A stretch of DNA of 64,000 bases, from IMG/VR virus record IMGVR_UViG_3300023184_000082, positions 15,892 through 79,891 of that record; one strand, given 5' to 3'. Below are positions 10,101-24,358 of this stretch, piece by piece; within the stretch, counting starts at the first letter, position 1, and each line of letters begins with the position of its first letter. The stretch is from a virus. Position numbers and translations under genes: made by a program. Under the pieces are notes generated by a model, which worked only from the letters and a program-made list of their open reading frames with translations, searched no databases and was not told the DNA's origin.

Positions 10101-13100
10101 TATGGAGACGCAACCAGATTGACGGGATTGGCCGGTATTAATCAATTATCATCTCGAAAAATGAATGTAAACGCTGTAGCCTTGCTTTTTGGTTCGCTTC
10201 TTTGGGACAAAACACAAAGAGGACCCTTTGCCACTTTGCAAAATCCAGAAACAAGCACACTTTATCACCTTATTGCTACTCCTTCGAATTCCAGCACAAT
10301 CAAGTATGATGGCAATTTTATGAAACTCTTGCAACAGGGAAGAATTTTCAATTCGCTGAAAAATGTACAGGCCGGGACAATGTCTGCTGACAATTTTCAA
10401 GAAAATGTTGTTTTCAAGAATAACATGTCAGATGTTCAACTTTGGCATGATATTCAAATTGCTGATCTTTTATCAAGCCAAACCAACATGTCTGATGGAC
10501 TCAGAAATGTGGCAAACGACATATTGACAGAGATAGGTGGTAAAAAAACACTGCTGGATGGCAAATACACTCGTGATGGAGTAGCAACAAATCCTGTGGT
10601 GGTCTCGTTGGCCACAAGATGGGCGATGTTTCGTGACAATCTTTTCTGGATGGGAAGAGATGCAAATTTTTCTCAGGATTCATACGCATTAAAAGATGAT
10701 GTACGGAGAAGAATGGCAGAAGCGACAAAGGTCTTGGGTGGCTCGGCTCCTGCGCTTCTGCTTGCGGGACATGTTGCCGAGAATTCAGATGCGTTTTCGC
10801 ACATGAATAATTCCTTGGCGGGAAAAATGCAGGAGACTATCAAGAGAATGATGTCCCAAGGCAGCAAGGGACCAAGAAGCTTGTACGAAACGCTATCTGA
10901 TTTGAAGGATTCCATTTCCCGCGCAAAAAGCAATTTTGTTTTCTTGGAAAATATCAGACATGATGGCCAGGAAAACATGATAAAGATGCGTCCATTGGCT
11001 TCATCAAATGGAGTACAGACAGATCCGCTTGCAGTATCCATCAAGAAATCCTTGGGAATCTCAGCAGGAACTACGTTACTTACGTTACCGGCATATCTGT
11101 CGTCAGCATTTGACCTGATTGCGTCGTTGGATATTTCGTTTGGGGCGGTAAAAAGGAAAATCGGCTTTGAGTCAACGATTGCAAATATCTCAAAATCAAA
11201 TATTGTAGATCAATCAGGCATAACGGAATCCAAAGATACAAAGTTTGTCTTTGTCCCAGGATCCGTATGGCAAGCGACCAAGATGCCCTTTGATGGAATG
11301 AAAGATACACAAGGAAACCTTGTCGTTCCCAATAAACTAAATCCGACTGCCTATGCTCTGGTTGCATCTCGACATCAAGAAATAAACAGGATATTTTTTG
11401 GGCTGACAGGAGGAAAATCATCCGATCAGGAGTTGATTGACGAAAGCGCTCTTTTTTCTAGTGATCAAAAAAACGAACCTCAAGACAGAAGCGCTTCCCA
11501 TTATGTATATATCGGAACGCCGATGGGCAAACAAATTGACGAAGGTCTTGGGGTATTGAATGCCAATGAAAAAGAAAGAATGGCTGAATACCAAAAAGCG
11601 GTCGCAATTGCTATCGGGCATGCAGCAAACATAAAGGGAGCGACCAGACTGCCATCCAATGCCCAATGGTTTCTTCCAAGTGATTCATCAACATTCAAGA
11701 TTATGCAGTCGCAAAATAAGGATATCTTTGAAAAGATCGCTCTCGATGCAATATCCGGAGGAGCTCAAGGATCACTGTCCAGCGAGAAGGATTTGCGAGA
11801 TAGGCAAATACGGGCACTCGTCTGGGCAAGAATGTATATCAATGCAATCCATGAAGCCAAGAGGGACGAAGAAATCAAGACTGCGGAAAAAAATTCGCCA
11901 TCACCATATACAGTGCATGCTCCAGAGGAAGCATCGTTATTCAAGGATTTTGGCGATGAGGATAAAAAGCTTGCGCAAGATTGTTCTTTCATCAAAATAC
12001 GCGCCCTTCAAGATGCATCAATCGATTCGACATCTGAAGCATTGACGTACAGAGACGTTGTTCCAACTTCACTTTCAACACCTTCCCCAACCATTTCCGA
12101 TTCCAATAGTGTCCGCAGCATGACAACGAGGATTTTTACGCTTGAATCAGAGATTCAAAAGGTAAAGCGTGACTTGGAGATGCCCCTGCTGAGCGCAGCA
12201 ACCAAAAGAGATCTTGAAGCAAAGAAGAAGGAACTAACCGATACTCTGTCCAAGCAAGTCGATGTTCGCGCCGCAACAATACGCGCGTCAATGACCACTG
12301 AAGAACTGGCAATCGTTGCAGACAAGAAAAAAATGCTTGATTCCATGGATGAGATAATGAATGACGAAAATGAATGGGAAGCTTTTGATGATGCAGTCGA
12401 TAGCGCAGAAAAACTCAGAAACGTTGATCCTGAGAACCCTGATTTCTTTACCGAAATCACGCACAGTCCTGAGGTTCTTGACATAGATTTTGAAAATCAG
12501 GATTCCATAGATGAGGCGGCATCTGCGCTTGAACAAGGGCAATTGTATTTGCAAAAAGCACTTCCTGTTCTAGCGGCGTACAAGGACACATTAGCGCAAC
12601 TTCAATCAGATGAGGATTATCCTATTCCATCGTATTCTCTTGACAACTCACTTGCTGGAAGCGGGAAAAAGAACATTTCCTATTTCCAATGGTATGAAAA
12701 TCTTGACGACCATCAGAAATCAAGTTCTCAAAAAAATCTCATGAGAAGATATGTGGCTCTCTTGGAATCTTCATTGCTACGACAATTTTTTATCAATGAG
12801 CAACTCAAGAAGGCAACCGGAGATGGACAAAAGTTTACAGTTGCCAGAATGACCAATTATTTCGATGAGTCTTCCGCGTTGCGCAAACGAGAAAAAGATC
12901 GCAATGCATTCATTGAACAATTGACACCAAATGAGTCAATGCTATTGGGAAGTCCGCGAGTGAGCAAAGTTTTTGGTGAAAATCCTCTCAGCGAACCGAC
13001 CGTTGATACATTGTCAATAAAACAACTGAAGGGAATAAGCAGGGGTGGGACATCCATTGAAGATGCCATTTCAAAAGAGCAGGTCATTCCTGTAACTAAT

Positions 13101-13994
13101 GCGATAATAGATTTCATGACATATCATTGGAAGCCAGTCAATGTCGGACTGGATACGAATATATTGGGCGAACTGTTTTCTTGGGGATCGCCATTATTTA
13201 CGTATTTGAAGAAAAACGGCGACCAGTCGTTATTCTGCATAGACGCAACGTCAGGTTCATCTATTTCATTTTCTTCTTCACTGCTCAAGAAGAGAGATGA
13301 AATAGTTGCGGACATTGCGCTTACCAAAGAAAACGTCAGGAGTGGGAATCTGACGCCAGATGAGGAGATTGAGTCAACACTGAAGCTGGAAAGACTTGAA
13401 CAAGACAAGAAACGAATCATTGAAGCGATCAATGACGAAACCACCAAGACAAACCTCATTGAAAAAGCATTCAATGCGTTTCGCTTGGAGGCAAGGGAGG
13501 CATACCAATGCATCTCTTCCGGATCAGAAGCGTTCAACGGAAAACTTTCCTTGGACTTCTGGAGAGATCAGTTCATCGATCTCAAGGCACCAAGGGCCAT
13601 TCAAATACAGTCAGCAACGGGAGAACCAACAAAGCAATTCACAAAACACGCGTGGCCACAATCGGAACGCAGGAAAATGGCGCGATCTGCCCAGCAGAAA
13701 TCATCAACAATGACGGAGTCCATACAAATAAGAGCCGCAACGGATTTCCCGCCGCTGAAGCCAGAATCCTTCAGCGCTTGGGCGACGGAGCTGAGCGCGG
13801 GGCAGCAAGATCCCGACAGCGTTGACACGCAGATGGAGGTTTTCAAGACAAGGCTGCGAAAATCATTCGGAATCGTGTACCATGTTCCGAAGACACGGGC
13901 TCCAAAACCGCCCCCTCGGCAGGCGCAGTTGCATAAGAGCCGCAAGGTTACATTCTTTGTCCGCAAGGCAGCATTTGACAGCAAAGGCAGGTAA
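1176..13994 (+). CDS. giant (4272 aa) polyvalent protein with DprA/Smf-type SLOG, NADAR (YbiA-like) and YspA-type SLOG domains; probable virion-internal protein
   Basis: Uninterrupted 12.8-kb ORF with RBS AAGGA. DprA-like motifs at ~5925-6660: DEHYPSRL, VACIGT, IVSGMAKGIDSICH, TIGILPHGI, VMTEYLPG, RNRLQAGLS, GSMAT. NADAR motifs at ~7290-7670: FGSAEALY, MYDALKIKF, LAKTGNATIVHESPDAFWG, GANVVGKLLMFIR. Second SLOG at ~7830-8330: VGITGSR, FVHGGAKGAD, AGNRRNSKIVANSDVLIAIWDGKSRGT, GKPVHLW. Confidence 0.85.
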   Translation: MIPDKTGEILSAVHAQKTGGIPDTAARGGGYIVQHKPDVPRPDEPGSLALPLVDQAHVRSSGMSASAISSDVADIGTMPPSSLTHGSPMITAMQTPRQTEPKWTENGLQYIINGQPVNVLSNGQDLSVQLPTVTGAPTAPLGKPEDVSSHLLFDPSKISRNSGGLDNLTSQQLDRITASIGAHEANQKLLFGIQRIFRDGGRDPAAGELTQKQKDDQHKDKKYASLERKYTKDGRLLLDALPLTTLTSLASTARDRANAAYKAWYENSGPLEGKATKADINQLQQMRMSRKKQFEYGFEPGNGIMRVFTLDDGRKFSEPVIPGKISTSRELPDSVDHFSGVLFPGDLAQSEDELIKFLGNPSYHRDASGKTVLEAHSDAMRGFMDNHLEQGIFPMLGDNRPISRETSRTPSRAEGIAGEESAASKTALVEERVKDDFALLMDEVAEKRASMEIALQQILETIASPTEKLDLPEIFKKIEALGDTKLPEAKKLEEESIGVLQQRELQEKIQAIKFSDGKPLRLEDLISPAVDSDGNSLPGSLLVNMSTHGFIGKTAATPGARHPLASVAAIEAQAYNTGRISKGLTTLDAAKARIDPDNLKKEKDFAEKIKAYLQQAMEASLLKYRADTQQTIKIPTLRQKVPLPVDAAMKFHKKQLFSALQIPVTTGVDVKKYAMRLPQDQGSEKLVPVIRLVDLRPDEFVDQVSSSIFSRDEANIFDTKLSAAYENFSSAKQNMQTVSGPESEAAVANARQGIENVLKENLVLNETERQSIENIIGKDASPYINLVKKALPKALFDSWLDKVKNGNFLGALTIMRDRLDASSTKTAAQQKIKADLAEYTRQLRNDVSYYIRSEGEQSKTPTGLFSPRIIREKSQKFTPYEDSTNAALFRKAYRQSLINSDSTLLDPQSFDDDKSPEMAKFIDQYPHVLVDSGQADIRSWFSESILNAAKDRFLSYEIQPKNPSNIILQSTSAAQEARSIIDHMRKMIDYEGEFPFGVRTDDPKSDHPWHDAEWHRRYTVPGTEYKEDFSKTGEFATGPDGSFVRKKINVKKDKMPDYKTGELKLWVPTKQPTADAQGRMKYEISKEDDISFQPEKSLLTARDSNGLMIPVGLPNGLDATQLQGYFPNPTWQGLARTPNAVSKTYAAPILAAVYGITGDSSFSRHPESPITDADLKNKLQEGINTLKKDIDTYYAKATKSSTADPWRQARADMIAMRTSRAVGSGSQDILKKILSVLSVNNEEIMKAIEEKYPRAEQWLPEHVKDFELLAQLNMRLSGSKDGSAPSMENIFSGDIPSYFYPGNDKEENGKDADWVKMALDVKADLLKKYAIPELPPSSEVWHEISLASAGQLVADAEKRIQFINEIQNTPRLQGEIATAINEAKSEIDQATSRSQQQQAVMRQPLDIAAHSRDVLDRCIAEKVMPFDISSSLYPDQMRGSGSPVAFYALGDTDAIDSHNMIHIASDPLAVRYNPSATLNEAGEAIDSISRLLLSRKSGNSPANAGLPLRTRKQHQKDHVQSMIAEMKKIYDMTSGDKNPLYDIINEINPHVAPILKLSSDHFDTPDWETKFLNALDAYCKAQDISMITPADEHYPSRLLAMPESWQFKTEQGSMISHVPKMIFVKGNIEKFKQKKFDLDRTVACIGTAKLKEGDPLDAEVAQIAKNTIQQLAKDNWIIVSGMAKGIDSICHGQALESGTATIGILPHGITSTPGASQAELYKRMTDPKGMGVVMTEYLPGMQNYGSTEGSTVKQNLHRNRLQAGLSIATVMFSSTARQNWIKENMGEYQIQANENGLLTERDIEDAGSMATLRHSLYQARRNFVLDPSSIVDSNNNLIYKDMDLSKGVMTGNFEAMENLNATSFNALEISGLIDNLNIAYATRNEPKRTFIGDGANAERVLTNLGMTQSPDETNESFLDRVTQEIMKKIAAKDADTKAVLKKISDSYNPDGSTKKSIVIYAPDENDASLKQLIMAREMGIPTVVVPAKVNYSKTKMADEYDENGELTRINSLKDWAPLKPDTVHAQKDELTATLKGSTYTFGSAEALYYAFLYENPEDISSISDLSKRQQGMNEIRRKAKQDQEAGRILELTRDQKVSRMYDALKIKFSNKNYANVLAKTGNATIVHESPDAFWGVIGDSSPKNQASIGTGANVVGKLLMFIRDQQRSNSNTLTPNEIRSMHSTQENCQIPWNKALPFFGMYAQDVDSSKITSLSNEPLRVGITGSREGLTSSMIEAALRGSLKMNSGSRLITEDATAALGLSDFEKRMGIKRQAVSSNSATRKITPLSFVHGGAKGADSQAINYILSNVKRFAIDGIENSITEIPFDAMSSDEKDFQDGTAGNRRNSKIVANSDVLIAIWDGKSRGTMHAVMTAIQQGKPVHLWSPDGRGGMKLQEIYPSSKGNMSVISPSDPSPRENSTLSIAQDEHPSHIRTSTLNLAEKLRTQTLTLGVSHDSPYMRGIRGSLVNSVRPKSVSIMYSPAPYSAQEPSDDFAVPRGHYRGDHELFHGRIHKGATRYGDRALPVDSPDSWESFSGFEQKTPLQKRIEKMAKERARQEEVDSLSLGGAKEKVSSTPGMEAIAMAVRGNNRASRYASVASQNPSAETSAWLDEYNNENPKFFSPESDSGKRMAKSTSRSMVIKNDLFPNLFAKVSISFADNEALGRSRDQREFNQATAKFHVMLFHRQQQTDASGKPADPLIVPVGSLVYEVPRSPALTSLSASRTDSGRGVFGEGYMNYQRVISMLATDVASNLLASHQATSIHQELTRHASGLSTLLQNNARYQELKKKRDRTAEETSEMKLLDASRKKLGTIGIPLTTAPQSHGLATLRTRQEDNLGDFIHTHLSSTTLQPSLLPTARGTVSDRLSSARDLSQYDPIKIPIEQINEYIESLRAHTQTIGSREAWPPAPALESIGQTTRRNKQLSANPNIRYQASHQQRGSSPQSGMLMLFKALGGEVKAAADHTPLDKDRGIYGDATRLTGLAGINQLSSRKMNVNAVALLFGSLLWDKTQRGPFATLQNPETSTLYHLIATPSNSSTIKYDGNFMKLLQQGRIFNSLKNVQAGTMSADNFQENVVFKNNMSDVQLWHDIQIADLLSSQTNMSDGLRNVANDILTEIGGKKTLLDGKYTRDGVATNPVVVSLATRWAMFRDNLFWMGRDANFSQDSYALKDDVRRRMAEATKVLGGSAPALLLAGHVAENSDAFSHMNNSLAGKMQETIKRMMSQGSKGPRSLYETLSDLKDSISRAKSNFVFLENIRHDGQENMIKMRPLASSNGVQTDPLAVSIKKSLGISAGTTLLTLPAYLSSAFDLIASLDISFGAVKRKIGFESTIANISKSNIVDQSGITESKDTKFVFVPGSVWQATKMPFDGMKDTQGNLVVPNKLNPTAYALVASRHQEINRIFFGLTGGKSSDQELIDESALFSSDQKNEPQDRSASHYVYIGTPMGKQIDEGLGVLNANEKERMAEYQKAVAIAIGHAANIKGATRLPSNAQWFLPSDSSTFKIMQSQNKDIFEKIALDAISGGAQGSLSSEKDLRDRQIRALVWARMYINAIHEAKRDEEIKTAEKNSPSPYTVHAPEEASLFKDFGDEDKKLAQDCSFIKIRALQDASIDSTSEALTYRDVVPTSLSTPSPTISDSNSVRSMTTRIFTLESEIQKVKRDLEMPLLSAATKRDLEAKKKELTDTLSKQVDVRAATIRASMTTEELAIVADKKKMLDSMDEIMNDENEWEAFDDAVDSAEKLRNVDPENPDFFTEITHSPEVLDIDFENQDSIDEAASALEQGQLYLQKALPVLAAYKDTLAQLQSDEDYPIPSYSLDNSLAGSGKKNISYFQWYENLDDHQKSSSQKNLMRRYVALLESSLLRQFFINEQLKKATGDGQKFTVARMTNYFDESSALRKREKDRNAFIEQLTPNESMLLGSPRVSKVFGENPLSEPTVDTLSIKQLKGISRGGTSIEDAISKEQVIPVTNAIIDFMTYHWKPVNVGLDTNILGELFSWGSPLFTYLKKNGDQSLFCIDATSGSSISFSSSLLKKRDEIVADIALTKENVRSGNLTPDEEIESTLKLERLEQDKKRIIEAINDETTKTNLIEKAFNAFRLEAREAYQCISSGSEAFNGKLSLDFWRDQFIDLKAPRAIQIQSATGEPTKQFTKHAWPQSERRKMARSAQQKSSTMTESIQIRAATDFPPLKPESFSAWATELSAGQQDPDSVDTQMEVFKTRLRKSFGIVYHVPKTRAPKPPPRQAQLHKSRKVTFFVRKAAFDSKGR

Positions 13995-14642
13995 ATGGTG
14001 GAAACCAGCAAAAACAGCGCCAACGGATATGGGCATTGGGCCATTCAAGTCAACGGAATGCCGCTTTATGTTTCGGGAGATTTCTCTTCCCTGCATCCTC
14101 ATCATGCCCTTTCGCGTCAGAAAACAAACATCAAGGGCGCCAAGGCGACCAAAATGCACGGATTAGCCGCGCAACACGACATCAAGGATGTTATCATTAT
14201 CAACGGAGAAGATGTTCCACACAACAATGTCGGGAAGCTTTCTCAGTTGATACGAAAGATACTGAAGAAAGAATCCCGAACCGTCAGGACATCATCAAGG
14301 AAACCCAAGGAATATGACATGTCATTCCCGAACACCACATTGACGGGAACGACGCATGAGTCATCCGGCGGAATCCTGTTTGTAGTTTCTGATGCAAATA
14401 ATCATCCCGTAATGATCACAAAGAGACCTTCAAGCATCAAGGATATTGAGGGAGCATTGCTTACCGATGTGTCTGAGTATCTTGCCCATGAACAACATCG
14501 GGCTGCGTGGTTTGTGCATCATGACATGAGCAATGACATTCGACATGCTCCTGATCATATTCTCCCCGATCACTCTCCATTGGCTTGCTGGCCATGTCAC
14601 AAAGGAAAAATGATATGGCGTTATCCTTCTGCCATACGGTAG
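13995..14642 (+). CDS. hypothetical protein
   Basis: 215-aa ORF starting immediately after the giant gene's TAA (TAAATG), consistent with translational coupling. His-rich C-terminus. Confidence 0.75.
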   Translation: MVETSKNSANGYGHWAIQVNGMPLYVSGDFSSLHPHHALSRQKTNIKGAKATKMHGLAAQHDIKDVIIINGEDVPHNNVGKLSQLIRKILKKESRTVRTSSRKPKEYDMSFPNTTLTGTTHESSGGILFVVSDANNHPVMITKRPSSIKDIEGALLTDVSEYLAHEQHRAAWFVHHDMSNDIRHAPDHILPDHSPLACWPCHKGKMIWRYPSAIR

Positions 14643-14656
14643 AGAGTTTGGAGTGA

Positions 14657-17600
14657 ATGATGCAGCAAGCACTGATGAAATCCGCAATAGAAATTCCGGA
14701 TCAGTTCGAACCACAGGAAGATCATGTTCCTGAGAGAGATCATGAAGGGTTGGCAAGAAGAGCGTGGATTCTGCAATCTGCCTTGTTCATGGGTATCCCT
14801 GTTGATGACATCCTTCCTCAACCACTAATTGATAGCATGGAACTCAATCGCATATCGCAAGAATTCCAGGTTGTCATGCGAGAACTGCTTGCAAGGGGAC
14901 ACCATCATGAAAGGGCAGTGGGAAATTTCATAAAAAAATTGAATGGCTACGCAAAACTTTATTGTTATTCGGGAAAGAAAGTGATCCGATCCGATGATAT
15001 CCATACGATGCTTCAAGTGTTCTCTCCATCGATGACCAGGGAACTCATGGCATCCATTGCCAATGCCACACGAAACATGTACCGACATACAAAACTTGAA
15101 ATGGATCGATTGAGCAGAGAAAAGAAGATATCCTTGCCGTATCGACATCCTTCGTTGCTCAAGGGACTTGACAATACCTATCCGCATGGACAAGGCTCAT
15201 ACGGACAATCAAATGAATGGAGATACGGAAAACAATCCTCCGTTGAATTCACGAATGCGTCGGCAACGAGATCCGGAACGTCCGTGCATCCATTTCTTCT
15301 TGTCCCAATGCATATCGATGCGCTTCCTTCGGGGTCAAAAATCCTGAGCTGTGAACTCGTGCATGAATCCATGCTTTTTTCAAGTGATGGTTCAATCAGG
15401 AAAAACGATCACGTCAGCATGACTGATGCGTGGGCAAGGTACCTGAAGCCGTTCACGGGCAATGCCGAATTGTGGCAGCAATCATCATCAAAGAATGGCG
15501 AGCTAAACAAGCGACTGTTCATTCAGCATCCACGAAAGAAAATCACATGGTTTTTCGCATCAGTCACCGCTGGCAACTCTCCTCTTGACCAGGAGCAATC
15601 CACAAAGATTGAGATATTCCTCGGGAAGACAAAGAAGATCGGAGAGATCACTTATGATTCTCGTCCCTCTGCCATCTTGAGGACGGCACAAGCACATCTC
15701 AACATTTTTCTGGCGCGATATATTGCTTCCGAGCTGGCTGCATATGGATTTGCGGCTGCCATGGGTCTTTCGGTGCCGCAATCATGTGAGGTTCCTCCAA
15801 ATGGAAATCCGTGGCTCTCCTTCAGGATATCAGGACGGTTGTCATCAACACCGTCAATGGCAATGGGACAAGCGGCATTTCCCGAAAATTACATCATTTT
15901 TTCGCGCGACAAGGAAGATGCATACACAACTGACATCTCAAGGTTTCTTCTTTGGGCAGAGTTTGACAAGGAAGTCCGGGTAATCCATGCCAATGACGGC
16001 GTATTGAGGATCATGCATGATTCATTCAATTATCATGTGGATATCATGACGCTCCCCAAGGGGCGAGGCATGAAAGTCACGCTCTTCTCCGATTCCTTCA
16101 ATTATATCGATGAATTGCGCATACAGCCACAAAACAAGGACAGCATGGAATTCATCGGCAAGGTTGCACTTGCCCAAGCAATGGGAGTGCCGGATGGGCC
16201 TGATTACAGCGAAATAGAATGCCTTGTCAGTCATGTTCCCATGAATTTCTCATCAAGTGATGGAGTTCGATTGCGGCCTGCGTTTGAAATGGGAGACATT
16301 CTCCCCTCTGATGACTACGCGCCATTGGATAGCCTTCCGCAAAGTTCCATATCCTATCACATGAACGCAGCATCAACCGTCATATACAAAAACTCGAACA
16401 TGAGCCGGATACGTGGAGATCTCACTGGATCGCTGAAGCTCTTTGAATCCCAAACCATTGATCAAAGTCATTTCTCCGAATACGCATCATGGCGGGATGT
16501 GATTGCTTCTTGCCAGAAGCAATTCAATTCAAATTTCTTCCGTGCCAAGAAGAAGAAGGATCGTGAGGAGTTGTTCAGTCAATCGCATATCCAGTCCCTC
16601 CTCGCAAACATACACACCCAGTTGAGCGCACACGAGACAAATGAACTGCAAGTATCCATCATTACCGAAGTCAAGGAAAAGAGCGATAACACATTCTGCG
16701 CGGGTGATTTTTTCCCCTTGCTTCGTACCTCGCTGTTGAAATACGGACTCTCGTATGATGTCTATCTAATTGGAAGAATATCTCATAAATCATATTATGA
16801 ATCCATGATTGCCCAAGAAAAGACATTTTTCAATTCCCTGTTCTCATTCATGATTACATGCAAGAATGCATACGGGCAGGAAATATGCATTTACCAACCA
16901 TCATATAGCGTACAACCGGGAAACTATCCAAGATACTCCTCAATCGGTGACATCCTCTGCGGATACTTGCCAGATTTCATGCTATGGATGTGCAGGGAAG
17001 GATTACGCAACCACAAGAACGATCAGCTTTCTTCGGCGTATTTTGCACAAAGATCAGATGGATATTCTTCCCTCACCAAGGACAAGCGGGAAGATGAGAC
17101 CTTGCCATTTTCTCCGGATGCCTCCATGATCGTGTTCCAGAAAGAGATGGTCAGGCGTTGGATTTCGTATCACTTCCCCTCAATCTCTCGCACGTCCTCG
17201 GGTTATCACGGAAGCGATCTGTCCATTCTTGATCATTTGATTCTTTCCGTGCAAATGGTTGACGAGCCGCGAGGAACCGATGACTATTGCCCTTCTTCGG
17301 AGCTGGATGACGAAGACATGGCAAGATTGCTTCGCATAACAATGCTCTTGCACGACATAGGAAAAAGCAGCGTCCTTGATGGAGGAATCGGGCCACATGC
17401 GATCAATCACGAGCGCTATTCTTCAGCGCTTGCCGCCAAGTTGCTGCCTCAATTCTTCCTGAAACGCAGTGAGTGCGAGTCCATCGAGAAATGGATCTAT
17501 CATCATTCGGCATTCGAATACGCCGTCGCTGGCAAGTATGGAAATCTGGAAGACGCTTCCGCTCATATAGCCAAGCTCTGCGGATCGGTGACTGATGCCG

Positions 17601-18607
17601 CGATGCTCTATCACATCTATCGATGCGACCTTGACTCATCATCCCGCGAACCATACGACAAAACAAGCAAGGAAGAATCATTTTCTCCAGAAGAACTCCT
17701 GGAAAAGATCGAATCGTATCTTGAGTCAAGTTCGTTCAGTCCAGTTACCCCGGAAAGGATACACTGCCAGAGATCATTCGATACTGTTTCAAAATTCTGG
17801 AACAACATGTCTGGTCTTTCCGCAAATGGCGAAAAGGCAATCAGGAACGATGACCTTGAGAATTACTTGGGAGTTTCCAAGTATTCCATTTCGCGACAAA
17901 AATTCTCGATAGAATATCTTCTCAAGGCAGAATCGATGCTGCCCGAAATCATGAAGAATCCTGAACTTTCGTTTGCGCGTTCACTTGGCATGTCGTATGA
18001 AGGACCTACGGGAAGTATTGTCCGTTGCTTTCAGTGGGTCAATGTTGATTCAATACAGAACATATTCCTTGAGGGACTCATGCCCTACGCATCAATTGAC
18101 GGAAGAAGCATCTATGCATCAGTCAATGAGGCAGCGCCGTTGCCTGTTCCTCTCTATAACGAAAATTTTGTGGCACTTCTGGTTTTTGACTATCACTGCG
18201 GCAAGATGATCAAACGTCACAAGCTTGATGAGTTGGCCAAGGAATTCTCCCAGGCGAAGAAAGCGACCATGGGTAGCCCATTGTTCTCCTTGTCACTATG
18301 CGAAAATGATCTTGTGGACAATGCCCGTATAGGATTGAAATTAGGATATTCGGCATCGCTTGATGTGCACAACGACAAGAAAATTCTTTGCTGCTTTGAT
18401 CCGAGCAGGACCGCATTGATCACTGCACTGATGGTTCCCATGTCAATTGCGCGGAAAGAGCTTTCTGCGGACTTCAAGGGAGCTCCCATGGAGTTTCTTG
18501 ATCGTCAGCACACAGGGAAATTCAAGAAAGTGTCCCTTCCTGATCTTGCGTATGAGGATTTGCGAGTCAGGAACAACAATCTCCAATGGATCAGTGATGT
18601 GCAATGA
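14657..18607 (+). CDS. large multidomain protein with HD phosphohydrolase domain and C-terminal degenerate PARP/ART-like domain
   Basis: HD motifs at 17201-17632: GYHGSDLSILDH, LLHDIGK, INHE, YHHS, RCD (GlnD/CCA-type HD pattern). PARP-like pattern at ~18011-18430: FQWVNVDSIQNIFLEGL, GRSIYAS, LLVFDYHCGK, GYSAS, CCFDPSR. RBS GGAG. Confidence 0.75.
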   Translation: MMQQALMKSAIEIPDQFEPQEDHVPERDHEGLARRAWILQSALFMGIPVDDILPQPLIDSMELNRISQEFQVVMRELLARGHHHERAVGNFIKKLNGYAKLYCYSGKKVIRSDDIHTMLQVFSPSMTRELMASIANATRNMYRHTKLEMDRLSREKKISLPYRHPSLLKGLDNTYPHGQGSYGQSNEWRYGKQSSVEFTNASATRSGTSVHPFLLVPMHIDALPSGSKILSCELVHESMLFSSDGSIRKNDHVSMTDAWARYLKPFTGNAELWQQSSSKNGELNKRLFIQHPRKKITWFFASVTAGNSPLDQEQSTKIEIFLGKTKKIGEITYDSRPSAILRTAQAHLNIFLARYIASELAAYGFAAAMGLSVPQSCEVPPNGNPWLSFRISGRLSSTPSMAMGQAAFPENYIIFSRDKEDAYTTDISRFLLWAEFDKEVRVIHANDGVLRIMHDSFNYHVDIMTLPKGRGMKVTLFSDSFNYIDELRIQPQNKDSMEFIGKVALAQAMGVPDGPDYSEIECLVSHVPMNFSSSDGVRLRPAFEMGDILPSDDYAPLDSLPQSSISYHMNAASTVIYKNSNMSRIRGDLTGSLKLFESQTIDQSHFSEYASWRDVIASCQKQFNSNFFRAKKKKDREELFSQSHIQSLLANIHTQLSAHETNELQVSIITEVKEKSDNTFCAGDFFPLLRTSLLKYGLSYDVYLIGRISHKSYYESMIAQEKTFFNSLFSFMITCKNAYGQEICIYQPSYSVQPGNYPRYSSIGDILCGYLPDFMLWMCREGLRNHKNDQLSSAYFAQRSDGYSSLTKDKREDETLPFSPDASMIVFQKEMVRRWISYHFPSISRTSSGYHGSDLSILDHLILSVQMVDEPRGTDDYCPSSELDDEDMARLLRITMLLHDIGKSSVLDGGIGPHAINHERYSSALAAKLLPQFFLKRSECESIEKWIYHHSAFEYAVAGKYGNLEDASAHIAKLCGSVTDAAMLYHIYRCDLDSSSREPYDKTSKEESFSPEELLEKIESYLESSSFSPVTPERIHCQRSFDTVSKFWNNMSGLSANGEKAIRNDDLENYLGVSKYSISRQKFSIEYLLKAESMLPEIMKNPELSFARSLGMSYEGPTGSIVRCFQWVNVDSIQNIFLEGLMPYASIDGRSIYASVNEAAPLPVPLYNENFVALLVFDYHCGKMIKRHKLDELAKEFSQAKKATMGSPLFSLSLCENDLVDNARIGLKLGYSASLDVHNDKKILCCFDPSRTALITALMVPMSIARKELSADFKGAPMEFLDRQHTGKFKKVSLPDLAYEDLRVRNNNLQWISDVQ

Positions 18608-19266
18608 ACAGGCAAGTGCAGCGGTATGAGGAAAATCACAAAAGCGGAGAAATGGAGCAATACATATCCATGATTCCCGCAAACATGATGTCAAGAAGTG
18701 CGGAGGTGCTTGAATACGCTGCAATCCTTGGCGTCGAACGTGTTGACATACCAAAGATGCCATCAGGAGAAGTGACAAAATGGTGGTATTTGATACAGAT
18801 GAAAACGTGCAAGACCTGTGTATTTCTTTCACAGAAAATACCACAATTCCCGTATCGCGATTGCAGCAACCCAAAGGTATCGCCATTGTATTTTGATATT
18901 GTTTCTCGCAGCTTGTCCCTTTGTGATCTTTGGCAGGCAGGATTTGACGAAGAGCGGATCGATGATGAGATTGAATCCGGATACGCGGAGAACAAGTATG
19001 TCCTTGCGGCAATGATCAAGATGGGATTGACAGATACTCCCAAGGATATTGCTGTTCCAACCGTAGGCAGCGTGGAAATGCTGAAATTCAATCTGGAGCT
19101 TGCAAGTGCAGCGGATATTCATAATTCAATTGTCTTTTCGTATGTACAAGCAGCAACAATGATTCGATCCGGACATCCCGTTGACGAAGACTACTTGTCC
19201 CAGATATCCAAAAAGTCACTTCCCGTGGTTCAGGGAGATAAATTCAATACAAATTTGTTACTATGA
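18604..19266 (+). CDS. hypothetical protein with 4-Cys metal-binding motif
   Basis: ATGA overlap with the previous gene. Motif CKTCVF-x(n)-C-x(n)-CDLW. Confidence 0.7.
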   Translation: MNRQVQRYEENHKSGEMEQYISMIPANMMSRSAEVLEYAAILGVERVDIPKMPSGEVTKWWYLIQMKTCKTCVFLSQKIPQFPYRDCSNPKVSPLYFDIVSRSLSLCDLWQAGFDEERIDDEIESGYAENKYVLAAMIKMGLTDTPKDIAVPTVGSVEMLKFNLELASAADIHNSIVFSYVQAATMIRSGHPVDEDYLSQISKKSLPVVQGDKFNTNLLL

Positions 19267-19282
19267 AAGCATGGAGCGTAAC

Positions 19283-22200
19283 ATGAAATCGACCACAAGA
19301 AAAAGTTTGCCTGCCGATCTTTGGAAATTTCAGGAATTGGCAAGTGATTCGCAATTGAATCAAGCGCCAAGAAACTCCGTTGGATTTGTTGTGAAAAAAA
19401 TGGGCAAAATGGTCACCAGTGCAGATCTGGAGACCCTTGCTGGTCCACGCGCAACTGCCGAGGGACTCAGGGCGGCTCTTGGATACACATCAGCGCGAGA
19501 ACAAGTCGGAATGAGTGACAGCGCCCAATTGGCTGTGCTCCTGAATCGCATGAACAAGGCGCTCCGCAAAAGTCTTCCCTTTGAGGATCATCCGAATAAT
19601 TCATTTCCCGTGCGCGATGAACGGTATCGCTCTCCCGATGGAACGATTAACGATCACCAAAGTGAGCATACTGCGCGAGCCGTCAGTGACTTGAGGGTCA
19701 AGGAAGGAGATGAGGCCGCAGATGAATATCTGAATGACATCGCAGGGCAAAAAACAAATGACGCGCAGAAGAAGTATGAGAATGATGAGGTGCAGCCAGG
19801 AACAAAAGCTGCATCCGCCGAAGATGCTGATGATTGCGATCATCCCGGTGGAGATCTTGACAGTTATGTAAAGCCGTCGGCTCGTGCACGAGGATACAAT
19901 CCGCGCACAAAGCAGATTGATCCTGATTTGGTTGGCATGGACGAAAGGGAATACACCGAAAGGTTTTTTGGCGACAAGATTGCCGACGCGATCCACGGAC
20001 CCAAGGAAGGGGCAAAAGATCGTGGCGAGTATCGTGTAACACAGCGCGGAAAAATGAAGATTGGTGATTTTGAGAATTCGGCCGATGAAAATGGGGAGAA
20101 AACCGGAGGAGATGGAGAACTTTCCGATGAAGTGAAGCAAAATGGTATTTGGCCAGGTGGAGCAAGTTCAAGTCCGCCGCCACCCGAGGAATCCGGAAGG
20201 CCTCCCAGCAGGGCCGAGGAGCAGGAAGGCGGTCCTCCCGGGGGCATTGTTCCTTCCGAAAAAGACCCCACTCCCGACAAGCCGCTTTCTCCAGAATCTG
20301 CAGAACGTGATCCGCTCGCCGAAGCCAGACACAGTCCGGACGGAACAAAGGTCAGTGATCCCGCAAAGTTCAAGGCATTTATCACAAACGCGAGGAAGTA
20401 TCTGAGAAGCCAAGGGATTGGGACGAAAGTCATCAACAAGGCTGCAAGCATGGAAATTGCCCGAGGATTGCTTGCGGGAAAAAAGGGCGGTGGATTTGGT
20501 TCCAAAAGCATGGGAATGATTCATGAGCAAGCACAAAAGGAAGCAGCAAACGCCGGTGTGCGGAACAGCAAGCATCAAAGTGGCGACCCATTGCAAGGCC
20601 TTTCTCCCAAAAAACTGACAAAGTACTACGCCATGGCCATCCGATCCATCTTTGGTGCGCATAAGGAAGGCATGAAATCATCCCGTTCTCGTGCAACAGT
20701 CATGAGTGCGCCATCCGAAACTGCTCCCTCGGAGCCACCGAAGGATGCCGGGACTGTTGCCAAGGAGGCGCAGCAGCTGCTTGACCCGTCCGGATCCGCT
20801 CCGGAAACAAAGGTGTCAGACGATAGGTTGGCAAATTCGGTCAAGCTGCTTGAAGACCTCCAGCCAGACATCGAGGACGGTATGTGGAGCGACGGAAGCA
20901 ACACGGTGGATCTCAATCCATTCCTGACTGCGGACGGCCAGTTGAAGCCGGGGTATTTTCTGAGGATGGGGTCAGATAATACCCCGACGATATACAAATC
21001 ATTCAGGAAATCAACTGCGGATGGACTGCCTATTGACAGGATAACCGCAGACCCGGAGAATGCTCCGGGGGGACATCGAAATTATTATCAAGGATCACAT
21101 GAAGAAGGCAGGGGGCCGGGATTCCTCAGCCTGGATCAACCAGCATTCAAGCGAGACCAGAATCTCTCCAATGGCAGTTCTGTCATTGGAGATGCCGGAT
21201 TGCAACGCGAACAACTAAACATCTTCAATGATCGCCCCGACGGCAAACTGATGCCAGGGATTCCCAATGATCTGTCAGCTCCCAAGGATGAGCCGTGGTT
21301 GACCGTCAATCCCGAAACGGGAGACTGGGAAGGAAAGCTTACCCGATTCAAGTTGGGGGCGTTAAGTCTTCCTGTTCGCGGTGCGTATCATATTGCATCA
21401 CAGGCCTTGCGAGGATTGACTGGAATCAATTCGGATAACGTCCTGAGTAATTTGGGAGACGCAGCAAAGCTTGCCTTTCATGGAGCCAGACAGATCAACT
21501 TGGATCCAGAAGCATGGGAACATGCCCAGCATAATGGAAGACTCGTGCAATTGAACGAGCAAAATCCGTTACCAAATCCTCATGGAGGCCCCATGCGCGG
21601 AATGTTTAAAAACAACATGTCTTTTGATGATTGGGAAAAGATTGCACAAGATAATTTCCAAAACCCCGATCATGAGTACGCAAAAGCAATGCACAGGCTC
21701 TTGGCAGGGCATCCTATCACCCAAGACGCCTACAAGGCATATATGGCAAACCAAAACGATGAAAGCGCACGAGACACTCTGAAAGAGGCGTACGAAACAC
21801 TTCGCAAAGAATACTTGGCGAAAGAAGCAACTGAGCAGGTAACGGGAGTGCAGCAGGCAACAGCAGCTACATTGAATCAGTCTGTTCCGCCAACAGATCA
21901 AGCCCCGTCATTGGGTAACGGAGTAGGAAGTGTTGCCAGACAATCCACTTCGCCTGTGGCAGCAGCATTGAGAGGTGCTCAGTTGAATCCGCAGGCGGGG
22001 CAAGAATTCGAGGACGCAATTCAGAGGGCTAAGGCAAGGGCCGCCGCTCCCAGGTCCACGCCGGAGGAGCGGCGGGAACAAAGAGATGCCAGGAAACTCG
22101 CACAGGCAGCGGATGTAGCGGTTGCTCCACAAAACGAGCCACCTCCTGATTCGATAGGAGGAGAACGGTTTGGACTCGTCATGGGCATACTTAACGCTCC

Positions 22201-23125
22201 CGGAAGCAAGGAGAGTTTCTGGAATCATCTTCCTGACGAGTTCAAGCAGCTTGATTTCAAAGATCAAGTGAAACAATTCCAGTATGTTCTTGAGAATGTT
22301 CACAGCATTGACAGGGTATTTCAAGACCGCGAGGCGGCGATTTATAATGCCTCAACACAAGGGGACAGCCACGAAGTCGGCCCTCGCCTCGTAGCAGCTC
22401 AGGAAGACTTTGCTAGAAACTTACAACGCGTACTACTTCGTGTACTTGGCCAAATACAGCTTGCGCCTAAACCAGCTGCAGCACCTTTGGAAGAACCTGT
22501 ATCCCGTGAACGTCGGATCGCTCCGTTGCCTCAGCGCGAACGACCTCGTGCTTCAAGGCCAGAGCAAACCTTTTCGCCTGTGGCAGCAGCATTGAGGGGT
22601 GCTCAGTTGAATCCGCAGGCGGGGCAAGAATTCGAGGACGCCATTCAGGCCGCTAAGGCAAGGGACGCCGCCGCTCCTGCGGGAGGCCAGCGAGTCGGGC
22701 AGACCGCTGCCCGTAACGCAGAGCTTCAACGTCTGGCGCAGGATCGGGAAGCACGAGGACGATCACGTTCGCAGACAGCAGTGCAAACGGAGGAACAGCC
22801 TGAAACCAGCATGGCTGCCCAAACGATTGAACGACCCGTCAGAGTTCGTGCGCAGCCTATCCAGCGCACGGAAGAGGAAATTGACGAAACACTGCGACAG
22901 ATAGAGAGCATGCTTCGAAGAAAGGATTCCGTCCAGCGTATTTCAAGGACACTCGGAATAAAATCAGATCTTCTGAATCGTGTCATCGCAGAAGCCGGTT
23001 GGTCCGGATTGTTGCCAAAGCCTGCAAAACCCCGTCTTCGGGGAATTGACCGGTACAGAAGGTCTTACAATCAGGATGAAAGCCATTATGGCAGTCTTCT
23101 GAAATCAGTCTATAATTCATTATAA
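19283..23125 (+). CDS. large low-complexity hypothetical protein, probable internal head protein
   Basis: Start revised to ATG 19283 after GGAG (19273-19276), in frame with ORF 19181..23125. Acidic and Pro-rich tracts, an internal ~33-aa duplication, and K-S/K-A motifs at both termini. Confidence 0.75.
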   Translation: MKSTTRKSLPADLWKFQELASDSQLNQAPRNSVGFVVKKMGKMVTSADLETLAGPRATAEGLRAALGYTSAREQVGMSDSAQLAVLLNRMNKALRKSLPFEDHPNNSFPVRDERYRSPDGTINDHQSEHTARAVSDLRVKEGDEAADEYLNDIAGQKTNDAQKKYENDEVQPGTKAASAEDADDCDHPGGDLDSYVKPSARARGYNPRTKQIDPDLVGMDEREYTERFFGDKIADAIHGPKEGAKDRGEYRVTQRGKMKIGDFENSADENGEKTGGDGELSDEVKQNGIWPGGASSSPPPPEESGRPPSRAEEQEGGPPGGIVPSEKDPTPDKPLSPESAERDPLAEARHSPDGTKVSDPAKFKAFITNARKYLRSQGIGTKVINKAASMEIARGLLAGKKGGGFGSKSMGMIHEQAQKEAANAGVRNSKHQSGDPLQGLSPKKLTKYYAMAIRSIFGAHKEGMKSSRSRATVMSAPSETAPSEPPKDAGTVAKEAQQLLDPSGSAPETKVSDDRLANSVKLLEDLQPDIEDGMWSDGSNTVDLNPFLTADGQLKPGYFLRMGSDNTPTIYKSFRKSTADGLPIDRITADPENAPGGHRNYYQGSHEEGRGPGFLSLDQPAFKRDQNLSNGSSVIGDAGLQREQLNIFNDRPDGKLMPGIPNDLSAPKDEPWLTVNPETGDWEGKLTRFKLGALSLPVRGAYHIASQALRGLTGINSDNVLSNLGDAAKLAFHGARQINLDPEAWEHAQHNGRLVQLNEQNPLPNPHGGPMRGMFKNNMSFDDWEKIAQDNFQNPDHEYAKAMHRLLAGHPITQDAYKAYMANQNDESARDTLKEAYETLRKEYLAKEATEQVTGVQQATAATLNQSVPPTDQAPSLGNGVGSVARQSTSPVAAALRGAQLNPQAGQEFEDAIQRAKARAAAPRSTPEERREQRDARKLAQAADVAVAPQNEPPPDSIGGERFGLVMGILNAPGSKESFWNHLPDEFKQLDFKDQVKQFQYVLENVHSIDRVFQDREAAIYNASTQGDSHEVGPRLVAAQEDFARNLQRVLLRVLGQIQLAPKPAAAPLEEPVSRERRIAPLPQRERPRASRPEQTFSPVAAALRGAQLNPQAGQEFEDAIQAAKARDAAAPAGGQRVGQTAARNAELQRLAQDREARGRSRSQTAVQTEEQPETSMAAQTIERPVRVRAQPIQRTEEEIDETLRQIESMLRRKDSVQRISRTLGIKSDLLNRVIAEAGWSGLLPKPAKPRLRGIDRYRRSYNQDESHYGSLLKSVYNSL
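21949..22677 (+). repeat. ~100-bp direct repeat, two copies (21949-22050 and 22573-22677)
   Basis: TTCGCCTGTGGCAGCAGCATTGAG(A/G)GGTGCTCAGTTGAATCCGCAGGCGGGGCAAGAATTCGAGGACGC... occurs twice in frame, encoding SPVAAALRGAQLNPQAGQEFEDAIQxAKAR. Confidence 0.95.
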
Positions 23126-23144: not shown

Positions 23145-23765
23145 ATGTCAGTGCTTGAAGGACACATAAAGAGGTTGCGAATCAAGACAGGAGGTCCTGA
23201 TAAACTAGCAGTGGATCGGGCAGCAACATCTGGAGGGCATCGATCAAAGAAATCCTATCAGGCCGTCATGGCGCCAAAGACTTCATCGCCAAGAACAAGC
23301 ATTGAAGAAAGACAGCGAAGGCTTGAGAAGTCCGTACAGAAGCAGGACGCCAAGGGCATCGGGCGGATCATGGAGCATATTGCCGATGTGATTGGGTCAT
23401 CCTTTGAGTCTCCCTTGATGATGCCAATGACTGGAGAGGGCAATCCTGATTGGGATGCTCCCGACAAGGACAGCTTTGTCATGATGCCGATCAACAACAA
23501 GAAGTCCAGTCTTCATGGACGATTTGTCATCTTGCAGAAGCTTCCAAATGGCATGTACAAGATTGCCGAGAAACCCACCAAGGAAAAGAAAAAGAAGAGC
23601 GATGATGATGATGACGGTGACGTGAACAAGGCTGGCATCACAGGCGCACGAAAAGTCAGGAGCGACACGGGCGCCACGCATCATTGGTCACCAAAGGGTG
23701 CTTCCATCCGCGGAGCAAGATCTGCCGGTCGGTCACCAAAGGGATCCAAGAGTGGTGCGCTCTGA
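23145..23765 (+). CDS. hypothetical basic protein
   Basis: Strong RBS AAGGAG, 206 aa, K/R-rich with a poly-D tract. Confidence 0.8.
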   Translation: MSVLEGHIKRLRIKTGGPDKLAVDRAATSGGHRSKKSYQAVMAPKTSSPRTSIEERQRRLEKSVQKQDAKGIGRIMEHIADVIGSSFESPLMMPMTGEGNPDWDAPDKDSFVMMPINNKKSSLHGRFVILQKLPNGMYKIAEKPTKEKKKKSDDDDDGDVNKAGITGARKVRSDTGATHHWSPKGASIRGARSAGRSPKGSKSGAL

Positions 23766-24358
23766 TGCGTACATCGCGAAAGGTGGGGGTACGGAACGCT
23801 CCCGCGTTAACGCCATCGGGGTTGCGGAGCAGCAAGCAGTCCGATCAGGGACGCAATGCAGGAAAATCGTACGGACAACCTACTGCATTGCAATCTGAAA
23901 AATCTCCCGCGTTGCAAAAAGCGACAAACATCGAGAATCAATTTCGATATGCATTGCTGAGAAAGGGTTTGAACTTCATCGAACAAGCCAACATTGGTCC
24001 TTGGTCATGCGATTTTTTTCTCCCTGAACACAAGCTGGTGATTGAAGCGGACGGGGAATACTGGCACTCGATTCCAAAAACGATGATGAAGGACAGGCGC
24101 AAGGATCTTTGGTTGCGATCACATGGCTATTCGGTCTTGCATTTTGAAGGCAAGAAGATATCTTCTGATCCAGATGGCTGTATCACCAAAGTGATACAAT
24201 TGATAGAAAATAATAAACTTTCCCTTTCTCTTGAGGTAGAAGAGGAGGAATTTTCAGAAGAGCCGGAAATAGCCATAGCAAAGGAACACGACGACGATGC
24301 AGAATACGAAGCTTGGCTCTCTTCCGGATCCATCGGACCAGGAGGAAGCGCTGGTTAA
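23765..24358 (+). CDS. DUF559/Vsr-like PD-(D/E)XK endonuclease
   Basis: Start at ATG 23765 (TGATG overlap). Motifs TNIE, FIEQANIGPWSCDF, LVIEADGEYWH, KDRRKDLWLRSHGYSVLHF. Confidence 0.85.
   Translation: MRTSRKVGVRNAPALTPSGLRSSKQSDQGRNAGKSYGQPTALQSEKSPALQKATNIENQFRYALLRKGLNFIEQANIGPWSCDFFLPEHKLVIEADGEYWHSIPKTMMKDRRKDLWLRSHGYSVLHFEGKKISSDPDGCITKVIQLIENNKLSLSLEVEEEEFSEEPEIAIAKEHDDDAEYEAWLSSGSIGPGGSAG

Follow-up and report, generated by a model that had tools for sequence, protein, structure and literature searches.

A late phage protein that joins an HD phosphohydrolase domain to a PARP-like fold without the canonical His-Gly motif

Among the protein-modifying domains in injected polyvalent proteins, ADP-ribosyltransferases (ARTs) are the most frequent, and they have an H-Y-D configuration there (PMC5512222). 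The ARTs of phages are enriched in myoviruses; they are often found as MuF fusions, and their genes lie near those for head proteins (PMC9503650). In jumbo phages, a role as counter-nucleotide defences has been predicted for HD enzymes (PMC7824862). Both ARTs that are injected by phages and eukaryotic pseudo-PARPs are already known. Here, we describe a phage protein in which an HD phosphohydrolase domain is followed by a PARP-like domain. It is the product of the open reading frame (ORF) P0001 (14657..18607, + strand, 1316 amino acids (aa)) in a stretch of 64,000 nucleotides (the window) from the IMG/VR virus record IMGVR_UViG_3300023184_000082. An initial annotation had described a finding at 17201-18430, and its content is indeed present there. 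However, this range (residues 849-1258) is only the C-terminal third of a late, probably virion-associated protein, which had been missed. The motif strings on which the annotation relied are real: all are in frame in P0001, and their codons were confirmed by translation.

Our preferred reading, to which we give about an even chance, is that P0001 is a late, probably packaged multi-domain protein, in which an active HD domain is combined with an ART fold that has been repurposed as a constrained recognition module and no longer acts as a transferase.

The ART-like domain comprises residues 1085-1262 (17909..18442, + strand). Folded alone by AlphaFold2 from a 17-row alignment, it gave a model with a predicted local distance difference test score (pLDDT) of 85.9 and a predicted template modelling score of 0.85. 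Its structural matches assign this predicted structure to the split beta-sheet ART fold, in which strand 1 is followed by a helix, strand 2 and paired hairpins. A Foldseek search of the PDB returned nearly only ART folds, with PARP10 at the top (E 4e-3, probability 0.99-1.0), and with the TASOR pseudo-PARP, PARP4, PARP2, NatT, RCD1, PARP13 and MbcT among the other matches. When the model was independently aligned with 48,161 representative PDB chains, 36 chains reached Z >= 5 and none Z >= 8. Almost all of them belong to the ART superfamily, and the ARTs at this level span PARPs, diphtheria-type toxins, RES and DarT proteins. The highest values were obtained for RCD1 (7.8), PARP13 and PARP10 (3hkv) (7.6-7.7 each), SRO1 (7.2-7.5), and PARP2, PARP3, PARP1 and tankyrase (7.2-7.3), followed by exotoxin A (6.8), TASOR (6.7), MbcT (6.6), diphtheria toxin (6.4), DarT1 (5.3) and Tpt1 (4.5-4.9). 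Re-alignment over Foldseek's first 1000 chains was consistent with this result. Among the predicted viral structures in BFVD, the best matches were a capsid-protease/MuF fusion protein, the PARP-like protein of IIV6, a 'large polyvalent protein associated domain' protein, and PolyVal ARTs. Because the Z values are only middling, the case for the fold rests on the uniform match list and on homologs that carry canonical residues. On this basis, the C-terminal domain very probably adopts an ART fold. The initial annotation had proposed that the C-terminus follows the pattern of the PARP H-Y-E clade and had named the lack of an ART split sheet as the refuting outcome; the AlphaFold2 model, Foldseek and the structural alignment all point to the ART fold of this clade.

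The homologs with canonical residues come from a distant branch of the family. A word-index search identified nine more cluster representatives of 1312-1375 aa, which are collinear with P0001 over their full length and are 31-97% identical to it over the C-terminal 477 residues. Scans of viral and metagenome sequences located 15 loci, and in two of these, one of them on a contig of 184 kb, the genes are arranged as in the window: a giant ORF, ORFs of about 221 aa, about 1312-1363 aa and about 223-273 aa, and a large ORF. No relative of the gene was found by DNA and protein searches of INPHARED (50,697 GenBank phage records). An exhaustive phmmer search with the 242-residue C-domain against 1.84 billion representatives led beyond this phage clade to P0018 (1896 aa, E 9.5e-8) and P0020 (633 aa, E 2.6e-4); two other candidates from the representative search, P0017 and P0019, were repeat or low-complexity false positives. 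The metagenome locus L016 and the protein P0021 group with P0018 and P0020, and these four sequences form the distant clade. P0021 was the only extra protein that two word-index searches for this HGT-bearing clade provided; a scan of 185,579 species genomes for the clade found none, and a scan of IMG/VR only a known relative. The HD domain precedes the ART domain in all four distant proteins. P0018 carries a Mu-F/SPP1-gp7 head-protein domain, a PI3/PI4-kinase-like region, the HD domain and the ART-like domain, and L016 (1-5745, + strand) has an insert of about 480 residues with a kinase-like motif between HD and ART. In P0018, the Pfam PARP model gives a sub-threshold match (12.3 bits, E 0.12), which lies exactly over the HGT...GIY stretch. 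A comparison of the phage clade with the four distant sequences by hhalign gave a probability of 99.2% (E 1e-19, 159 columns), with FQW aligned with HG. As side observations, P0018 has weak PI3_PI4_kinase and SCO1664-family matches, and P0018 and L016 are high in GC, which the window is not.

At the level of sequence models, the domain in P0001 is silent. Sequence and profile searches of the PDB with the C-domain (single sequence, phage-clade, all-family and distant-clade profiles) found no match, and there was none for the ART-like part in Pfam, PHROGs and ESM Atlas. With the Pfam PARP model (PF00644), neither P0001 nor the contig as a whole had a match at E <= 1, and the same holds for the ART-PolyVal model (PF18760) with P0001, P0018, P0020, the L016 ORF and the contig. 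The ART-PolyVal family was also absent from three Felix-O1-like phage records that were reached via tail sheath matches. The Tpt1/KptA model (PF01885) had no match in the Pfam search of P0001.

The motif columns of the ART-like domain were read from an alignment of the phage clade and the distant clade. In strand 1 of P0001, which reads RCFQW (residues 1123-1127, 18023..18037, + strand), Q1126 occupies the canonical His column and W1127 the Gly column. The segment DGRSIY (residues 1148-1153, 18098..18115, + strand) ends with Y1153 in the canonical strand-2 Tyr column. FDYHCG (residues 1177-1182, 18185..18202, + strand) contains a [DE]-x-H-x-G motif that is present in all family members. Finally, the stretch from I1243, the equivalent of the PARP catalytic Glu, to DPSR (residues 1248-1251) is located at 18383..18409 (+ strand), in a register inferred from aligned ranges; DPSR is invariant in all members. 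The strings quoted in the initial annotation are FQWV (1125-1128), IFLEGL (1136-1141), GRSIYA (1149-1154), YHCGK (1179-1183), GYSA (1230-1233) and LCCFD (1244-1248). Their motif-by-motif register is supported by relatives that read YHGT, IFSTGM, GHGIYV, EVHTG, GYS and ILDPSR at the same columns. In full, P0018 has VYHGT in strand 1, IFSTGMRPG in the helix, YGHGIYVSVNG in strand 2, MEVHTGR at the [DE]-x-H-x-G motif, AGYSTI at the GYS motif and CILDPSR at the DPxR motif. The corresponding segments of the window are RCFQWV, IFLEGLMPY, DGRSIYASVNE, FDYHCGK, LGYSAS and CCFDPSR, and the motifs of P0020 and L016 are like those of P0018. The annotation had advised a search for homologs in which the signature is intact, and for His, Gly and Tyr these now exist in P0018, P0020 and L016.

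The three catalytic columns behave differently. The His column has H in the distant clade (R in P0021) and in P0004 and P0005, the subclade nearest to the window, Q in the window and P0003, and V, Y, L, I or F in the rest of the phage clade. The Gly column has G in the distant clade (M in P0021) and W in all phage clade members, so that P0004 and P0005 keep the His, followed by Trp. The Tyr column has Y in the distant clade, in P0004 and P0005 and in the window and P0003, and H, E, Q, F, S or I elsewhere in the phage clade. With respect to the H-Y-E clade, the window thus lacks the H-G-S/T of strand 1, for which it has Q1126-W1127 where P0018, P0020 and L016 have H-G. It retains the strand-2 Tyr of GxGxY, as Y1153 in GRSIY, which aligns with GHGIY and GKGIY. 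The acidic or Gln residue at the start of strand 5 is missing: column 1243 reads I, T, S, G, M, A or Y, and is acidic in no family member. The assignment of I1243 to the catalytic Glu, and of D1248 to PARP1 D993, was made by arithmetic over aligned ranges (PARP1 839-1009 to model residues 8-190, PARP10 855-1007 to model residues 7-189), and not by residue-level superposition. The triad of the window is therefore Q-Y-I. PARPs of the H-Y-hydrophobic type (PARP10, PARP14 and PARP15) are active mono-ARTs although they are devoid of the Glu. Since the column is non-acidic in the whole family, the absence of the Glu alone is no sign of inactivation, and judged by its aligned residues the family as a whole is H-Y-hydrophobic, like PARP10, PARP14 and PARP15. 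Of the His and Glu that had been described as apparently lost, the former is indeed replaced by Q1126, but the latter is not a specific loss.

The phage clade is thus marked by the invariant W1127, a fixed R1123, and His and Tyr columns that are freed from constraint. Ten positions are universal in both clades (Y1114, T1118, N1157, D/E1178, H1180, G1182, G1230, Y1231, D1248 and R1251), and these family-specific residues may line one pocket. A switch to an R-S-E type site was considered in view of the fixed R1123 in strand 1, and was rejected as there is no conserved S-x-S or E-x-E. In comparison with the H-Y-D configuration of ART-PolyVal, the His is absent, the Tyr is present, and the invariant D1248, a candidate equivalent of the Asp of that family, lies just past the strand.

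Conservation along the protein was computed on a full-length alignment of 10 sequences. The ART-like region is the best conserved part (48% mean pairwise identity, 20% invariant columns), followed by the HD region (43%, 15%), the tail region (30%, 7%), the N-terminal parts (28-30%, 6-7%) and the linker (22%, 1%). The initial annotation had described the C-terminal domain as an apparently inactivated pseudo-enzyme, which might bind NAD+ or act as a decoy coupled to the HD domain. Its NAD-binding His-Gly is gone, in line with this description, but a domain that surpasses all other parts of the protein in conservation appears to be repurposed and not decaying. The fixed Trp at the Gly position and the drift of the His and Tyr columns suggest that it no longer transfers ADP-ribose; on these residue patterns, we lean slightly towards a loss of classical transferase activity.

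The HD domain comprises residues 840-995 (17174..17641, + strand) and is supported by the Pfam HD model, by invariant ligands and by fold matches. Its lead-in GYHGSDLSILDH begins at 17201. The metal ligands, with codons checked by translation and all on the + strand, are H860 (17234-36), H899-D900 (17351-56), H918 (17408-10) and D991 (17627-29), to which the pair H949-H950 (17501-06) has to be added. H860, H899, D900, H918, H950 and D991 are invariant among the 10 full-length homologs, whereas H949 varies (H, Y or N). The ligand series H...HD...H...HH...D of the initial annotation therefore stands with six ligands, and only the second His of its HH is constrained. The Pfam HD model matches residues 886-972 with E 1.8e-4, at 22.2 bits a narrow pass over the cut-off of 22. 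The ligand motifs H...HD...D and the all-helical fold place the domain in the HD superfamily, and the six-ligand series together with the HDIGK motif indicates that it is probably an active enzyme with a two-metal site.

The fold matches of the HD domain were taken from a two-domain AlphaFold model (pLDDT 77.8). The best one was to the C-terminal half of 3wfo (Z 14.1, root mean square deviation (rmsd) 3.1, 158 residues), a 'tRNA processing enzyme' according to its depositors. We take 3wfo to be a class-II CCA-family enzyme. The next matches were GppA (10.3) and PhnZ (10.2), then TmpB, Cas3-HD, YhaM, SAMHD1 and PgpH, with Z values of 8-10 for PhnZ, TmpB, Cas3-HD and YhaM, and of 7.6 for PgpH. 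Weak sequence matches of the HD region were to Cas3 HD and to GlnD HD/HDIG, and together with 3wfo they lend some backing to the GlnD/CCA-like flavour that had been ascribed to it. None of the HD subfamily models reaches its cut-off. The HDIG model TIGR00277 stays below it in the relatives (18.5-20.5 bits, cut-off 27.6) and has no match in P0001, though P0001 contains HDIGK.

The genomic setting bears on where the protein acts. The source contig, a viral contig of 79.9 kb in IMG/VR (about 49% complete according to CheckV), is from an uncultured large tailed phage. Its large ORFs are co-directional, all on the + strand. P0001 is followed downstream by a virion structural protein, a head maturation protease (27549-28532) and the major head protein (30087-31982), and further downstream by the tail sheath (34232-37546) and then by VgrG3-like/GH46 and CHAP tail proteins. 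P0001 lies in a late structural (head/virion) operon. The capsid and sheath proteins have distant likeness only to those of SPO1-type and Felix-O1-type myoviruses. P0001 also has the features of a polyvalent protein, namely several unrelated effector domains (HD and ART fold) in a large polypeptide, a location in a head/tail operon and near a 4272-aa DprA/SLOG/NADAR protein, and a relative that is fused to MuF. From the gene neighbourhood, packaging of P0001 into the capsid is an evenly balanced proposition.

According to the preferred reading, P0001 would be expressed late, probably packaged in the capsid, and injected. Its C-terminal cassette would derive from an HD domain paired with an active mono-ART. 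An older form of this cassette, with His-Gly in strand 1, Gly-x-Gly-x-Tyr in strand 2 and a non-acidic Glu position, may be what is seen in the rare MuF-fused or kinase-containing phage proteins. In the large-phage clade of the window, the Gly would have become fixed as Trp and an Arg three residues upstream of the His column would have been fixed as well, while the His and Tyr columns drifted. The ART fold would have stopped transferring ADP-ribose and would have been kept as a ligand or substrate recognition module, probably for a nucleotide or ADP-ribose-type moiety, and the neighbouring HD domain would supply the chemistry, phosphoester hydrolysis, early in infection.

Several points weigh against this reading. 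The structural Z values are middling (7.8 at most), and such values can reflect a common arrangement of secondary structure; no sequence model of an ART family is significant on P0001. The Glu-equivalent position has been assigned by range arithmetic. P0001 itself has no MuF or portal fusion, and its packaging is deduced from gene context. The substrate of the HD domain is not readable from fold or sequence matches, and any substrate that one might name would be a low-confidence guess. There may also be residual or altered catalysis, since H-Y-hydrophobic PARPs are active and the nearest subclade keeps the His. The strong conservation and the invariant Y1114, T1118, N1157, D1178, H1180, Y1231, D1248 and R1251 would fit a new active site as well, and so would two Arg residues of the phage clade: R1123, which never varies there, and R1150, which most members have.

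The latter points are the basis of the strongest alternative, which we nevertheless consider unlikely: the ART-fold domain may still be an enzyme, which binds NAD+ or a related dinucleotide and catalyzes ADP-ribosylation, NAD+ cleavage or a related transfer at a rebuilt active site with residues such as R1123, R1150, D1178, H1180, D1248 and R1251, with the HD domain as a second, independent effector. Such a role would account for the ART-like domain being the most conserved region of the protein, for ten polar or Gly positions that are universal in both clades, and for the strand-1 Arg that is shared by the whole phage clade. The PARP10-type triad of His, Tyr and Ile is retained in relatives that are 47-54% identical, and mono-ART PARPs are established to be active without the Glu. 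However, PARPs hold the nicotinamide amide through the backbone of a Gly, and an invariant Trp takes the place of this residue here. Most of the phage clade also shows no constraint on the His and Tyr columns, and the top structural matches include the known pseudo-PARPs RCD1, PARP13, TASOR and SRO1.

These matches can also be read in another way, which we regard as rather unlikely. The ART-like domain could be purely structural, a module for protein-protein interaction or for capsid targeting or assembly, as in the TASOR or RCD1 pseudo-PARPs, and the HD domain would then be the sole functional enzyme. The non-catalytic PARP domains among the best fold matches, the location of the gene in a head/virion operon, and the drift of the classical ligand-contacting columns are all consistent with this role. 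The pairing of HD and ART-like domains is kept, however, in very different architectures (MuF-fused, kinase-containing, and the 633-aa form), which points to a functional couple and not to a phage-specific assembly contact, and the universal polar residues suggest a conserved pocket.

It is also conceivable, with a probability that we judge to be quite low, that the cassette is a capsid-delivered two-domain enzyme of a new kind, in which the ART fold has abandoned transfer and recognises molecules derived from NAD+ or ADP-ribose, and the HD domain cleaves them. The ligands could then be immune signals of the cyclic-ADPR type, or ADP-ribose marks that ARTs of the host defence place on DNA, RNA or protein. 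If this were true, the enzyme and the NADAR domain of the giant neighbour would be complementary parts of an injected set of counter-defence tools.

The HD matches raise the improbable alternative of an RNA end-healing module. A CCA-like HD domain would remove 2',3'-cyclic or 2'/3'-phosphates, a Tpt1/KptA-like ART would handle a 2'-phosphate, and the two together would counter host anticodon or other RNA nucleases. In the E. coli CCA-adding enzyme, the HD domain acts as a cyclic phosphodiesterase and as a phosphatase, and the presumed CCA-family identity of 3wfo, by far the best HD match (Z 14.1, with all others at 10.3 or less), agrees with such a role, as does the presence of Tpt1 structures among the ART matches. 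PARP-type chains nevertheless score far above Tpt1 (7.8 versus 4.9), neither the N-terminal RNA lobe of Tpt1 nor its R-H-R-R tetrad was recognised (the tetrad was not mapped), PF01885 has no match, and the Pfam scans that were run found no RNA ligase in the window.

Finally, it is highly improbable that the likeness to ARTs is a chance or convergent arrangement of strands in a domain from an unrelated fold family: Z values below 8, a Foldseek E of only about 4e-3 and the absence of significant sequence matches to ART models would allow it, but ARTs make up almost all of the chains at Z >= 5, the homologs aligned by hhalign have HGT, GxGIY and the second Tyr in the right order and spacing, and the sub-threshold PARP match of P0018 falls precisely on the first two of these motifs.

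One further structural match was set aside. Chain 9k3a_B of the cyanophage A4 pre-ejectosome aligned with the model of window 17879-18604 at Z 6.4 (rmsd 6.1, 162 residues). An ART-like domain is not mentioned for this chain in the paper on the A4 pre-ejectosome (PMC12002296). The match may be noise, or an ART-like fold that has so far been overlooked in an ejection protein, and it was not used as evidence.

The remainder of P0001 is less informative. The N-terminal 839 or so residues (14657..17173, + strand) have no recognisable domain, and the first 840 or so had no match in Pfam, PHROGs and ESM Atlas. A hydrophobic-x-K-S motif at residues 6-9 (window 14657-14700) reads LMKS, MMKS, LFKS or IVKS in the four closest homologs and is absent from more distant ones. 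The linker between the HD and ART-like domains (residues 996-1084, 17642..17908, + strand) is poorly conserved and was modelled with low confidence. A GGAG is located 3 nt 5' of the ATG of P0001. The upstream ORF (13995..14642, + strand, 215 aa, function unknown) stops 14 nt before this ATG, and the stop codon of P0001 overlaps the ATG of the downstream ORF (18604..19266, + strand, 220 aa, function unknown). The positions of both are kept in relatives, where they have about 221 aa and 223-273 aa, respectively. In PHROGs, neither P0001 nor its neighbours had a match. Promoter-like and terminator-like sites in the P0001 region were not in excess over shuffled sequences.

Some of the neighbouring genes deserve mention. 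The 4272-aa ORF (window 1176-13994, + strand), directly upstream of the 215-aa ORF, matches DprA (PF02481, E 1.9e-29), SLOG cluster 4 and NADAR (E 1.8e-10). With these domains, one of them related to ADP-ribose, it resembles a giant polyvalent protein, and it is encoded close to the HD/ART-like gene. A 1314-aa ORF (window 19181-23125, + strand) is rich in Pro, Ala and Glu, contains the segment SPVAAALRGAQLNPQAGQEFEDAIQ twice, and has no family match; as listed, with a TTG start, it shares 86 nt with the preceding 220-aa ORF, so that the true start is probably further downstream. A hidden paralogous domain common to P0001 and one of these two neighbours was considered and dismissed, as BLASTP found nothing below E 0.1. 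Between the giant ORFs and the head genes, there is a gene for a DUF559/Vsr-like endonuclease (window 23684-24358, + strand, E 2.9e-12). Beyond the tail sheath, a 1080-aa protein (window 40225-43467, + strand) has a strong type VI secretion system VgrG3-like C-terminal/GH46 lysozyme-type domain (E 2.2e-51) and a 1000-aa protein (window 43479-46481, + strand) a weak CHAP domain; both are likely to be cell-wall-degrading tail or baseplate proteins.

Among the known systems, the HD domain of P0001 shares the H...HD...H...H...D series and an HDIG-type motif with CCA-family 3wfo, PhnZ/TmpB, Cas3-HD, PgpH and the HD domain of GlnD. Unlike these, it is not partnered with a nucleotidyltransferase, GYP, 7TM or helicase domain. 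Phage and conjugative-element polyvalent ARTs (PF18760; Tox-ART-HYD2, PMC5512222) resemble P0001 in that the ART fold terminates a large multi-domain phage protein whose gene is next to head genes, and P0018 is fused to MuF. In contrast to these ARTs, neither P0001 nor its relatives match the model, and P0001 has lost the defining His. Our finding names a domain that has been left blank by Pfam, PHROGs and NCBIfam. We found neither a description nor a library model of a phage ART fold that is devoid of the NAD+-binding residues although no other part of its protein is under stronger constraint, and that is always accompanied by an HD hydrolase. Should nucleotide signals or signals derived from ADP-ribose be what the HD domain acts on, large freshwater phages would have in this cassette an injected counter-defence activity of a new kind.

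The closest parallels to the fate of the ART fold are found in eukaryotes. The pseudo-PARPs PARP13/ZAP, TASOR and plant RCD1/SRO1, which are the best or near-best fold matches, are ART folds without NAD+-binding residues that are yet conserved and functional. Specific common descent with P0001 is not apparent, and the hosts, the partners (HD domain and phage virion operon in the case of P0001) and the substituted residues differ. With the H-Y-hydrophobic mono-ART PARPs (PARP10, PARP14, PARP15 and PARP12), the P0001 domain has in common the fold, the order of the motifs and the hydrophobic residue at the Glu position, and the distant family members also have His-Gly and GxGxY. Unlike these enzymes, P0001 has Gln-Trp for His-Gly and no detected sequence similarity to the Pfam PARP model, it has an extra helical insert (residues ~1187-1228) and the family-specific motifs MxY[DE]GxTG, [DE]xHxG and DPxR, and the domain is found in a phage, fused to HD. 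The family offers a natural series, from H-G...Y in the distant clade through H-W...Y in the nearest subclade and Q-W...Y in the window to x-W...x in the rest of the phage clade, which could show a route by which an ART fold is repurposed.

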